A DNA stretch of 64,000 nt from an uncultured Alphaproteobacteria bacterium (GCA_947588275.1 CANPYJ010000002.1:2216-66215), one strand, 5' to 3'. Positions 32,353 to 62,532 are shown, numbered from the stretch's first letter. Numbers and translations: made by a program. The notes: a model not told the origin generated them from the sequence alone.

Positions 32353-32415
32353 GTGCTTGCTTTCGCGCCGGTTTGATACTATGATGAGCCATATTTGAGG
32401 CAAAAGGAGAAGATT

Positions 32416-33288
32416 ATGCGCAAAGTTTTGGCTTTTGATGTCGGCGGTACCAAAATTGCTTATGCGGCTATTGCCGCAGACGGCAGTTTTGCCAATGAAA
32501 TTATCAAAGTCACAACGCCTCGGTCGGCCGCCGCCGTTTATGAGCTGTTGCATACGGTTATCAAGGGACAGGAACATGAAATCGACGGTGTCGCAATTGC
32601 TACGGCCGGGGCAATAGATAATGCCAACCTGCATATCATCAGCCGTGTGGGCAATCTTCCGGAAGGGTATGGAGAGCTTGATTTTCAATCGTTGACTCAT
32701 AAGCCGTTGTTGCTTGAAAATGATGCCAATGCCGCGGCTTGGGCAGAATTTTGTCTCGGCGCGGCCAAAGGCGCAAGCAATGCTGTCGTTTTAACGCTCG
32801 GCACCGGCGTCGGCGCGGGAATAATCGTCAATTCCCGATTGCTGAAAGGCAAGTCCGGTGCGGCCGGCGAAATGCATGTGCGCTTTAATAACGAACATCG
32901 GCGGCTTTGTACCTGCGGATTATGGGATTGTCTGGAAACTTATGTTTCGGGCAATGCCCTTACGGCCGACGCCAAAGATTTTATGGGTGCGGAAATGACC
33001 AGTTATGACGTTATCCGCGGATTAAAATCCAATGATCAAAAAGCTCGCGCCGCTTTTGACCATTGGCAAAATTGTCTTGAAAATGCTTTGGTGATGATGG
33101 GAAATCTGTTTGATCCGGAAGTTATCGTTTTGTCCGGTTCCATGGCGCAATTTGTGGAGTATGACAAAGTCGGGCGTCAGGCAAACCAAGATATTTTGAC
33201 CAGCCCGTTCGCCTTGCGGCCGGCCAAGTTTGAAAACAATGCCGGCATGCTTGGCGCCGCCTTGCTTTTATTGGAGAAAATCAAATGA
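32416..33288 (+). CDS. ROK-family sugar kinase (glucokinase-like)
   Basis: ATP motif LAFDVGGTKIAYA and ROK zinc motif CTCGLWDCLE. The probable start is MRKVLAF at 32416. Confidence 0.85.
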   Translation: MRKVLAFDVGGTKIAYAAIAADGSFANEIIKVTTPRSAAAVYELLHTVIKGQEHEIDGVAIATAGAIDNANLHIISRVGNLPEGYGELDFQSLTHKPLLLENDANAAAWAEFCLGAAKGASNAVVLTLGTGVGAGIIVNSRLLKGKSGAAGEMHVRFNNEHRRLCTCGLWDCLETYVSGNALTADAKDFMGAEMTSYDVIRGLKSNDQKARAAFDHWQNCLENALVMMGNLFDPEVIVLSGSMAQFVEYDKVGRQANQDILTSPFALRPAKFENNAGMLGAALLLLEKIK

Positions 33289-33659
33289 AATATTCGCTGC
33301 CTGTACATGAGTTTTCATTTAATAAAATCAAAACCGGACAACGCAAAGTCGGCGTCCATCTGCTGGACAAACAAGCTCAGCAGATTAAGATAAACGATGT
33401 TTTGGAACTCAAAAACGGCACTACCGGTGAGCTCTTGGAACGACAGGTCAGCGGCATCGCCGTGTTTGACAATTTCAGCGATTTGGTCGATGCGTTATCG
33501 CCGCAAAGCCTCGGTTACAACAGTAAGGAAGAGATTATGCTGCGTTTGCGGCGGATTTATTCGCCAAATGCTCAGCAAAGTCTTAATGCGGTCGGATTTT
33601 TTCTGAAACCGTTGCCGGAGAAAAACTCGGTTAAGACGCGCTCGCCTATCGAACGCTGA
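33285..33659 (+). CDS. ASCH-domain protein
   Basis: 124 aa with an ATGA overlap to the kinase gene. A PUA-like/ASCH-type N-terminus (FSFNKIKTGQRKVGVHLLD) is plausible. This is a weak family call. Confidence 0.5.
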   Translation: MKYSLPVHEFSFNKIKTGQRKVGVHLLDKQAQQIKINDVLELKNGTTGELLERQVSGIAVFDNFSDLVDALSPQSLGYNSKEEIMLRLRRIYSPNAQQSLNAVGFFLKPLPEKNSVKTRSPIER

Positions 33660-33676
33660 AAAACCAAAAAAATTGC

Positions 33677-33705
33677 TTGCAAAATAAAAAGAAACCTTTT
33701 ATTAA
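33677..33705 (+). promoter_or_regulatory. candidate promoter upstream of the repeat array and tRNA-Ser
   Basis: TTGCAA (33677-33682), 17 nt, TATTAA (33700-33705). Confidence 0.3.
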
Positions 33706-33756
33706 ATATGCCGATAAATGTACGAAAGCTGAATTATTATAAACATATGCAGTGCT

Positions 33757-34072
33757 GAATATATGCAGTGAATGGATGAGTGGCAGAGAGGCTGGAATCG
33801 CAGCGTAGCGGAGATTGGTGCAGGCGCTTTGAAAAAAGCGGCAAACCAATTAAGCGCGACAAAGCGGAGCTTTGAAAGCACGCATCCGGCAAATGTATGA
33901 AAGCGAATTATTTTGAATATATGCAGTGAATGGATGAGTGGCAGAGAGGCTGGAATCGCAGCGTAGCGGAGATTGGTGCAGGCGCTTTGAAAAAAGCGGC
34001 AAACCAATTAAGCGCGACAAAGCGGAGCTTTGAAAGCACGCATCCGGCAAATGTATGAAAGCGAATTATTTT
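33757..34072 (+). repeat. two identical 158-bp tandem units, each containing the tRNA-Ser leader plus its first 21 nt
   Basis: 33757-33914 and 33915-34072 match base for base by eye. A third start of the unit (34073-34110) continues into the intact tRNA. A diverged copy of the unit tail lies at 33711-33756. Confidence 0.9.
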
Positions 34073-34089
34073 GAATATATGCAGTGAAT

Positions 34090-34181
34090 GGATGAGTGGC
34101 AGAGAGGCTGAATGCGCGCGACTCGAAATCGTGTATACGGGGTGACTCGTATCGGGGGTTCAAATCCCTCCTCATCCGCCA
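34090..34181 (+). tRNA. tRNA-Ser (anticodon CGA), class II with a long variable arm, encoded CCA
   Basis: Acceptor GGATGAG/CTCATCC. Anticodon arm CGCGA-CTCGAAA-TCGTG. Variable arm ATACG..CGTAT. T arm GGGGG-TTCAAAT-CCCTC. Discriminator G followed by CCA. Confidence 0.92.
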
Positions 34182-61861: not shown

Positions 61862-61968
61862 TACTTTCTTTAGGCTGATTTTTTTGTAAATAATAATGTC
61901 TTTTTTTATACTTTACTATAGTTAATTACATATTGTGGAAGAAGTAGCAAATTACAGATTGAAGAAAT

Positions 61969-62357
61969 AAAAAACCACCATAAAGGTGGCTTTTTTGTAA
62001 TTGGAGCGGGCAATGGGATTACTTCGCATCGCTGCGTTCACTTCGGCAATCGGCTAAAGCCGAACGGCGTTCTTCCGCCCGCCTTTTCCTCGTAGTCGGA
62101 CCCACTTCCTCGTGGCTCCTAATCCGTCGCCGACTATAATTACAAAAAAAACCACCATAAAGGTGGCTTTTTTTGTAATTGGAGCGGGCAATGGGATTAC
62201 TTCGCATCGCTGCGTTCACTTCGGCAATCGGCTAAAGCCGAACGGCGTTCTTCCGCCCGCCTTTTCCTCGTAGTCGGACCCACTTCCTCGTGGCTCCTAA
62301 TCCGTCGCCGACTATAATTACAAAAAAAACCACCATAAAGGTGGCTTTTTTTGTAAT
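61969..62357 (-). repeat. two ~178-bp tandem units, each containing the last 19 nt of tRNA-Gly plus its terminator
   Basis: The tRNA 3' fragment TGGAGCGGGCAATGGGATT (+ strand) occurs at 62002, 62180 and 62358. The 123-nt modules 62021-62143 and 62199-62321 are identical by eye. The terminator hairpin occurs three times. Confidence 0.9.
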
Positions 62358-62432
62358 TGGAGCGGGCAATGGGATTCGGACCCACGACATCAACCTTGGC
62401 AAGGTTGCGCTCTACCCCTGAGCTATACCCGC
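62358..62432 (-). tRNA. tRNA-Gly (anticodon GCC), encoded CCA
   Basis: Minus strand: GCGGGTA-TA-GCTC-AGGGGTA-GAGC-G-CAACC-TTGCCAA-GGTTG-ATGTC-GTGGG-TCCGAAT-CCCAT-TGCCCGC-T-CCA. Confidence 0.93.
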
Positions 62433-62532
62433 ATCTGCAGAACGTCATACTTAATAGCATATCTTAAAAAAAATGCAAGCACTAATTTATATTTTTTTTG
62501 AATTATTTTTAGCGGCGGCGGGCATCCGGACT

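Follow-up and report, generated by a model that had tools for sequence, protein, structure and literature searches.

The window, a stretch of 64,000 nt, comes from a gut alphaproteobacterial lineage known from MAGs only. A tRNA-Gly(GCC) gene was identified on its minus strand at 62432–62358 (ARAGORN; Rfam tRNA model, 64.7 bits), with genes for a glycosyltransferase, MurJ, a TM2-domain protein and GroEL in the neighbourhood, and the first of a series of repeated units begins 41 nt past the CCA of this tRNA on the same strand. Using Tandem Repeats Finder, the array was delimited to 61969–62376, with a period of 178, 2.3 copies and 99% matches, and the last 19 nt of the tRNA, AATCCCATTGCCCGCTCCA, were found three times, at 62358–62376, 62180–62198 and 62002–62020. 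Read along the minus strand, the tRNA is followed by a spacer with terminator, a 123-nt module and the 19-nt tRNA end, this series is then repeated, and an A6/T6 terminator closes the array (table 1). Each 123-nt module is bounded by 55-bp direct repeats, made up of the tRNA end plus terminator and containing the tRNA 3′ segment. Exact 178-bp repeats of this kind cannot have arisen by chance.

Tandem repeat analysis and substring positions bear out the description given in the initial annotation, namely a tRNA-Gly and two 178-bp units each ending in an exact copy of the tRNA 3′ end plus terminator, and its coordinates, its period of 178 and the positions of the 7-mer GCGGGCG (62254–62260 and 62076–62082) are right; the hairpin TAGTCGG...CCGACTA that it listed ahead of each 81-nt segment is present. 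Its remark on the distal terminator was correct in that the T run differs, but this is not the sole difference, both runs being changed (A6/T6 versus A7/T8). The statement that the T-stem strand has no partner in the units was wrong: every unit contains GTGGGTCCGA, identical to tRNA-Gly positions 49–58, at 62274–62283 and 62096–62105. The tRNA copy in each unit therefore amounts to approximately 29 nt split by a 75-nt core, and not to 19 nt.

Table 1. Features of the tRNA-Gly(GCC) locus and its array, with positions in the window.
Feature	Position	Strand	Remarks
Probable tRNA promoter, TTGCAT ... TATTAAGT	62449–62478	−	inferred from sequence
tRNA-Gly(GCC)	62358–62432	−	copied parts: last 19 nt, 62358–62376; T-stem 5′ strand and half T loop, 62376–62385
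Spacer and bidirectional terminator hairpin, copy 1	62317–62357	−	ATTAC-A7-GCCACC-TTTAT-GGTGG-T8-GTAAT
RtT-like unit 1	62180–62320	−	covariance model R1, 140.1 bits
Unit 1, antisense arm	62290–62316	−	
Unit 1, loop GAGGAA	62284–62289	−	
Unit 1, sense T-arm half	62274–62283	−	GTGGGTCCGA
Unit 1, core	62199–62273	−	
Unit 1, tRNA 3′-end copy	62180–62198	−	
Spacer and terminator hairpin, copy 2	62139–62179	−	identical to copy 1
RtT-like unit 2	62002–62142	−	covariance model R1, 140.1 bits
Unit 2, antisense arm	62112–62138	−	
Unit 2, loop	62106–62111	−	
Unit 2, sense T-arm half	62096–62105	−	
Unit 2, core	62021–62095	−	
Unit 2, tRNA 3′-end copy	62002–62020	−	
Distal spacer and terminator, array end	61969–62001	−	A6/T6 variant
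Core hairpin P3, GGCG-GGCGGAAGAA-CGCC	62244–62261 (unit 1), 62066–62083 (unit 2)	−	includes GCGGGCG
Core hairpin P4, TCGGC-TTTA-GCCGA	62228–62241 (unit 1), 62050–62063 (unit 2)	−	

The promoter candidate is the sole promoter-like sequence upstream of the array on the minus strand, and similar TTGCAA...TATTAAAT blocks are found upstream of tRNA-Gly in two related loci, L010 and L013; a simple promoter scan did not call the candidate and called nothing inside the units on the minus strand. The first terminator forms the centre of a long imperfect palindrome between the tRNA 3′ half and the antisense arm, and its stem has a homologue in the native terminator behind tRNA-Gly in L010. A second array, noted initially as well, lies at tRNA-Ser in the same window (33756–34110; period 158, 2.2 copies, 100% matches). 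Alignment and nhmmer gave no significant similarity between its modules and those behind tRNA-Gly.

Relatives of the source organism retain the order GroES-GroEL-TM2-tRNA-Gly, followed by a different gene each time. L010 has a plain terminator behind tRNA-Gly; 1.4 kb further on, its tRNA-Ser(CGA) is followed by a terminator, a clearly homologous module and a copy of the tRNA-Ser 3′ end. A conserved pattern derived from the window and L010 sequences was used to scan metagenome contigs and GTDB genomes. The metagenome-contig scan returned one locus, behind tRNA-Lys, a count that is a lower bound as L010's own JGI contig was missed. The GTDB scan returned ten true loci, the identified tRNAs being Met, Pro, Arg(CCG), Arg(UCU), Gly, Ser and Val, in MAGs of Alphaproteobacteria or unplaced Proteobacteria except for one 1.4-kb contig binned as Prevotellaceae; tandem units, at least two in number, are present at several of these loci and are distinguished from each other by point changes (L029, L026). 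A further copy was found behind tRNA-Met in MT837473.1, which is filed as phage and is actually bacterial DNA. Sought behind other tRNAs in relatives, the module was thus recovered behind Ser, Lys, Met, Pro, Arg, Gly and Val, and overall the different tRNA genes that it follows in related Alphaproteobacteria of gut and rumen number at least nine. Chance or a purely local duplication is ruled out by the module behind tRNA-Ser in L010 and the ten further loci.

The order of parts is constant in all members: terminator, antisense arm, purine loop, sense copy, core and tRNA end. The antisense arm is an imperfect reverse complement of the local tRNA 3′ half, the purine loop reads GAGAA or similar, and the sense copy covers the T-stem 5′ strand and the first half of the T loop. 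Cores are 65–85 nt long, start with CUAC and end with AGU, and the terminal tRNA copy runs from position 57–59, in the window units from A58, to CCA, in many cases with the spacer and terminator that lie downstream. The antisense arm and terminator form a long palindrome with the tRNA 3′ half (45-bp arms in L033), and in seven of ten loci the local tRNA is the best match of the arm. Grouping the cores by genome or by tRNA gave no clear pattern.

A consensus fold was built with RNAalifold on ten units. It has 35 pairs, 32 of which are formed by the window unit (scored on the row of L005, another assembly of the same species, with identical sequence), and it describes a three-way junction of a GGAU:AUCC closure, an arm hairpin and the core, the closing helix joining GGAU of the arm to the AUCC that opens the tRNA copy. 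The core helices in this consensus are UAC:GUG, GGCA:UGCC, P3, P4 and a small P5. Paired cells made up 94%, versus 24–42% after the 3′ partners were slid by 1–3 columns, and two-sided changes were present at 14 pairs versus 5.3 ± 1.6 in shuffles, with none of 500 shuffles reaching 14. The helices contain approximately 31 G.U cells versus approximately 4 A.C cells, and it is therefore the tRNA-sense strand that folds. The core is shown to carry three covarying helices, sited where the T loop would continue, so that the loci supply a covariation-supported fold for it; of all helices of the family P4 covaries most, and it is common to E. coli RtT (GTTGCC-GCAG-GCAAC). An acceptor-like closure by the 5′ tail of the antisense arm was tried and set aside, the cognate value of −9.9 kcal/mol versus −8.5 kcal/mol for non-cognate combinations being a marginal difference only.

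In the initial annotation the units had been read as encoding chargeable or processable 81-nt tRNA-like RNAs (62260→62180 and 62082→62002) closed by a GCGGGCG:UGCCCGC acceptor stem. The 7-mer and its complement exist, both are used in the MFE fold of the 81-mer, and in related species GCGGGCG does form the acceptor 5′ strand of tRNA-Gly. In the consensus fold, however, the 7-mer is paired locally as part of the conserved P3; at other loci its place is taken by GCGAACG, GCGGACG or GCAGACG regardless of the local acceptor strand, while GCGGGCG itself persists unchanged behind tRNA-Lys, tRNA-Val and tRNA-Met, with which it cannot pair. When homologues were inspected for the proposed helix, its 5′ strand was accordingly invariant or varied independently of the local acceptor strand. 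The computed fold of the 81-nt RNA was no better than that of shuffled sequence (z = −0.97; 30 of 200 shuffles fold as well). When tRNA models were run on the units, ARAGORN called just two true tRNAs and the Rfam tRNA model matched 62361–62432 alone. Because GCGGGCG sits in P3 and is identical behind tRNAs that it cannot pair with, the acceptor stem was rejected, and we consider the 81-nt model very improbable. The array does not represent a novel type of tRNA-like gene.

It is a divergent case of an element long familiar from the tyrosine tRNA genes of E. coli. Knowledge of RtT (Rfam RF00391) goes back to the earliest sequencing of tRNA genes, and its Rfam model derives mainly from Gammaproteobacteria. 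A 178-bp sequence repeated 3.14 times was reportedly described by Egan and Landy in 1978, and rtT RNA is said to have been described by Bosl and Kersten in 1991. A literature search on tRNA-flank repeats with generic terms found no matching description, and the route to RtT was a sub-threshold Rfam match on a relative: both units of L029 were matched by the RtT model over its full length (model positions 1–130), with a best score of 18.2 bits (E 0.43) against a gathering score of 45. The Rfam RtT model gave no match to the window units (61900–62500), even at E ≤ 10, and none to eight other loci. In the reverse direction, a covariance model, R1, was built from alphaproteobacterial units alone and picked out exactly the four RtT units of E. 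coli K-12, in register and with 23–27 bits. The E-values of these matches were approximately 1e-6 in 2.5 kb, with rough calibration, and 4e-5 to 3e-4 in an unfiltered 82-kb search, in which the sole other new match was a truncated unit; part of the reciprocal score is owed to the T-arm-like and tRNA-end sequence common to any such mosaic. As the window units have no Rfam RtT match, homology rests on layout and on R1, with its rough E-values.

The layout of the K-12 tyrT and tyrV units agrees closely in its parts. They are spaced at 178 bp and consist of an antisense segment, GGGGAAGGATGAGAAGCTTC, directed to the tRNA-Tyr T arm, then GACC, AAGGTTCGA, the core and AATCCTTCCCCCACCACCA, the last 19 nt of tRNA-Tyr and the K-12 counterpart of AATCCCATTGCCCGCTCCA; the core contains the GTTGCC-GCAG-GCAAC hairpin followed by a ...GAAGCG...GAGT tail. 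Both systems lie directly behind a tRNA gene on the same strand, as tandem 178-bp units that each carry the last 19 nt of the tRNA through CCA, and share the order of antisense T-arm segment, loop, T-stem 5′ strand plus half T loop, and core hairpin. A GAAGCG...AGUAAUCC tail ahead of the tRNA end is found in both (R1-guided alignment, row L005), copy number is variable in both, and the models of the E. coli and alphaproteobacterial units detect each other's members (that of Rfam with L029, below the gathering score). The host and tRNA differ, being an alphaproteobacterium and tRNA-Gly in one case and E. coli and tRNA-Tyr in the other. The window core has an extra helix, P3, which the E. coli units do not have; the window units carry an intrinsic bidirectional terminator, which forms with the arm a long palindrome to the tRNA 3′ half, whereas those of E. 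coli have a 60-nt spacer without a hairpin; and the tpr start codon of E. coli RtT is absent from the window units. The closing helix of the RNA uses the copied tRNA 3′ strand in the Rfam RtT consensus as well, and the inner part of that structure differs from the RNAalifold fold obtained here. The window array is likely to be a divergent representative of tRNA-operon distal repeats of the RtT type, and we conclude that it is a remote RtT relative that lies outside the family as Rfam delimits it.

In E. coli, rttR is encoded by one tyrT repeat unit (PMC3318445), and the annotated RNA, of 171 nt, begins 7 nt past the CCA of tyrV and stops at that of the first repeat. E. coli RtT RNA has been linked loosely to the stringent response and also to stress. 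RtT members adjoining tRNA-Asn and tRNA-Lys genes are expressed in Actinobacillus (PMC4986893); these, Arrc20 and Arrc21, resemble the present module in standing near different tRNAs and differ from it in that they pass the Rfam model and were detected by RT-PCR (PMC4986893), the units described here being below the Rfam cut-off and known from sequence. The initial proposal of an RNA gene therefore holds to the extent that an E. coli relative is annotated as an RNA ending at the copied CCA, but the 81-nt form of it fails. By homology with rttR, the units would be transcribed from the tRNA promoter through read-through of the first terminator, and the enzymes that process tRNA 3′ ends may cut them out and trim the copied end to CCA; the expected products, on the same grounds, are RNAs of approximately 170 nt ending in the tRNA-Gly terminus ...GCUCCA. 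Release of a stable RNA of approximately 171 nt from the tRNA transcript is a feature of E. coli and is predicted here, and the general idea of an RNA ending in a tRNA terminus would be in line with the E. coli homologue. Given a good terminator at the start of each unit and no promoter of its own, transcription may be rare.

The units might also be kept for a small arginine-rich peptide like E. coli Tpr, and an open frame at 62019–62219 does lie in the tpr register and encodes an arginine-rich sequence (GPTTRKRRAEERRS...). The tpr position is without ATG, however, and the frame opens with a GTG in the preceding unit. Among members, indels of 1–2 nt in hairpin loops break the frame, and substitutions track base-pairing rather than codons, so that a Tpr-like function is to be regarded as exceedingly improbable.

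A different reading takes the units as copies of a non-autonomous mobile element or attachment site that inserts at the tRNA T loop and piles up in tandem, each insertion bringing or regenerating the tRNA 3′ end and terminator; the fold would in that case be a property of a single-stranded intermediate of transposition instead of a functional RNA, and such a process could be the general route by which RtT spreads. The distribution of the module is compatible with this. tRNA-Gly is empty in L010 and filled in the window and in L033, tRNA-Ser(CGA) is filled in L010 and L034 and empty on the 3′ side in the window genome, and tRNA-Arg(UCU) carries an RtT-like module in L030 and a module of the same layout with an unrelated core in L032; the cores at two tRNA-Met loci are merely 62% identical. 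The junction is always at T-loop positions 57–59, a region that Williams reportedly named in 2002 as the classic crossover site of tRNA-targeting integrases. In L030, L010 and L024 the distal terminator is unlike the proximal one, and decayed distal units are present in L033, L027 and L042. In tycheposons, new units enter next to the tRNA (bioRxiv 10.1101/2020.12.28.424599), and the decayed distal units fit such entry beside the tRNA.

Against mobility, the surroundings of the arrays have no recombinase, transposase or reverse transcriptase in common: an all-against-all comparison of the ORFs around 14 loci gave just synteny and one distant resolvase pair. Two pattern scans of viral contigs for a phage parent gave chance matches or none, a plasmid search gave nothing, and the sole phage-database match, MT837473.1, was discarded as a parent since it is a bacterial fragment with DsbD, MnmA and QueH. 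A double-stranded circle of 178 bp is implausible as a recombination substrate, ordinary integration leaves the antisense arm unexplained, the arms cannot be refitted to a new tRNA by simple crossover, and the homologous E. coli units give a stable RNA. A long target duplication by staggered cuts, Campbell integration of a 178-bp circle, snap-back reverse transcription starting from the terminator hairpin and retrovirus-like primer-binding-site logic were each considered, and no test supported any of them. The suggestion made in the initial annotation, that these are tandem integration scars, thus agrees with the patchy, tRNA-hopping distribution but not with the outcome of the searches, which found no parent element or recombinase; insertion of a mobile element is, on balance, unlikely.

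Known tRNA-integrating elements, with their attL/attR scars and tandem accretion (for example tycheposons, and the partial tRNA genes covered by the review PMC9897764), likewise repeat the tRNA 3′ segment from the T loop. They share with the window array an intact tRNA, presence that varies among relatives and older copies pushed distally. The array differs from them in having no integrase or cargo, a unit of only 178 bp, an antisense arm, a covarying structured core and an E. coli homologue that is an RNA product. At the CTX phage attP and integron attC sites, a hairpin folded from imperfect inverted copies of the target imitates its double-stranded form, and such sites too occur in tandem arrays. 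The array may resemble them and differs in having no associated phage or integrase and in its target, which is the tRNA T arm and not dif or attI; no evidence of a single-stranded DNA form came to light. A MITE was rejected as a candidate, as the inverted repeat is internal (antisense versus sense arm) and the duplicated target ranges from 11 to approximately 60 nt between loci.

With the array read as an RtT relative, the RtT mosaic design extends to uncultured gut Alphaproteobacteria, behind at least nine different tRNAs, and its arms are matched to the local tRNA, the module itself being present in some related genomes and absent from others. Two long-standing questions can now be tested, namely whether RtT serves as a functional mimic of tRNA ends or travels selfishly with tRNA operons, and in what way it is retargeted. 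We put forward only tentatively, as a bolder view that is rather doubtful at present, that modules of the RtT type, far from being a peculiarity of enterobacteria, form a cross-class family of structured RNAs that moves between tRNA genes and rebuilds both arms from the local tRNA. If true, retargeting would need an undescribed copying mechanism, for example a switch of template at the terminator hairpin or passage through a single-stranded intermediate, and the RNA would be a programmable mimic of, or antisense to, the 3′ half of a specific tRNA.

The number of units at the locus was compared among assemblies of the same species, which is present in DRR848763, DRR849034, DRR848829, ERZ27060014 and ERZ27249426. 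L005 crosses the tRNA-Gly locus with one unit, four other same-species contigs break inside tRNA-Gly, and the TM2-domain protein next to the array is present on five other same-species contigs; the tRNA-Ser array has one unit in three other assemblies (L035, L038 and L039). The copy number of two in the window is not secure, because short reads cannot count perfect repeats of this size. It is therefore conceivable that the element is real and its two-unit state an assembly artefact or specific to the strain, the true number being one or another, and the single unit of L005, the single units at tRNA-Ser, the four contig ends inside the tRNA and the 100% identity of units longer than typical k-mers would agree with this. 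As a rule, however, short-read assemblers merge repeats of this type into fewer copies instead of multiplying them, so that a count of one may itself be the artefact. We consider an artefactual or strain-specific two-unit state a fair way short of probable, though a possibility to be kept in mind. Arrays may lengthen and shorten through unequal recombination between the 55-bp repeats of tRNA end plus terminator. At tRNA genes, short-read assemblies are broken by arrays of this type, which also yield partial tRNA matches that should not be taken for integration scars or new tRNA-like genes. The units of some relatives differ from each other by a few bases (L029, L026; point changes also in L028), and tandem arrays are therefore real for the RtT-like family; E. 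coli genomes carry 1–10 RtT units, with a median of 3.

The tandem array at tRNA-Ser(CGA) of the window was located on the 5' side of the tRNA, a mirror image of the arrangement of the Gly module, the RtT-like 178-bp units behind tRNA-Gly(GCC). In each unit, a leader of 18 nt and positions 1-21 of the tRNA were followed by about 119 nt that terminated in CGCATCCGGCA, nearly a copy of the tRNA's 3' terminus. The fold was a long hairpin (z = -3.65). The array separates the tRNA from a promoter at about 33673-33707 and is therefore expected to be transcribed. A single unit was present in other assemblies, versus 2.2 copies in the window. No Rfam match to these units was obtained, and no likeness to the Gly module was found. 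An analogous array was observed upstream of tRNA-Ser(UGA) in L028, a locus from a related metagenome-assembled genome (MAG), as were all L-numbered loci below unless otherwise specified. Its units were pseudo-tRNA-Ser copies with an insertion of about 24 nt in the anticodon loop and a replaced T arm, and had blocks GGAATCGCAG and GAATTATTnTGAAT in common with the Ser units of the window.

Coordinates of the features compared.
Feature	Locus	Positions	Strand	Remarks
Tandem array at tRNA-Ser(CGA)	window	33756-34110	+	158 bp x 2.2, 100% identical
tRNA-Ser(CGA) gene	window	34090-34181	+	
Tandem array upstream of tRNA-Ser(UGA)	L028	1982-2270	+	133 bp x 2.2, 96% matches
Module behind tRNA-Arg(UCU)	L032	7640-7860	-	
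ROK kinase gene region	window	32395-33659		compared with L010
ROK kinase gene region	L010	3704-4949		compared with window
Region 3' of tRNA-Gly	L013	1218-1954		
tRNA-Gly(GCC) gene	window	62358-62432	-	
tRNA-Gly(GCC) gene	L010	3537-3611		
tRNA-Gly(GCC) gene	L013	1143-1217		
Open frame across repeat units	window	62019-62219	-	arginine-rich
Region noted on contig with RtT-like unit and terminal adapter sequence	L025	1400-1431		1.4-kb contig binned as Prevotellaceae

Behind tRNA-Arg(UCU), two RtT-like units were present in L030; in L032 the same tRNA was followed by a module of the same layout but with an unrelated core (terminator, antisense arm, hairpin, core, 15-nt tRNA 3'-end copy and the same terminator). 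Fragments of the L032-type core were nested within the decayed unit behind tRNA-Val of L028.

In L010, tRNA-Gly and tRNA-Ser flanked two genes, one for a ROK kinase and one of 124 aa; in the window both were inverted and adjoined tRNA-Ser only, 28 kb from tRNA-Gly. The breakpoints of this rearrangement adjoined the two tRNA arrays. In L013, a stretch of about 125 nt after the tRNA-Gly terminator included a decayed copy of the tRNA 3' end (GCCCGTTCCAATTC). A gene that comes next, on the opposite strand, encodes a serine recombinase (resolvase) of 195 aa.

In the window and in relatives, tRNA-Gly(GCC) had the T loop UCCGAAU, with C at position 55, which is almost universally U (pseudouridine) in tRNAs. 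The window gene contained U6.G67 and A7-U66, and the relatives C6-G67 and G7-C66. The open frame through the Gly units shared its register with E. coli tpr (protamine-like peptide) but lacked the ATG of tpr; the corresponding frame was broken by indels in other members of the RtT-like family.

The entire record MT837473.1 (human faeces), despite its GenBank label 'Bacteriophage sp.', is a bacterial chromosome fragment; it encodes DsbD, MnmA and QueH, and also holds a tRNA-Met with an RtT-like unit. The flank of the RtT-like unit in L025 was identical to proteobacterial MAG L027, and the contig is probably mis-binned or chimeric, since it terminates in Illumina adapter sequence.
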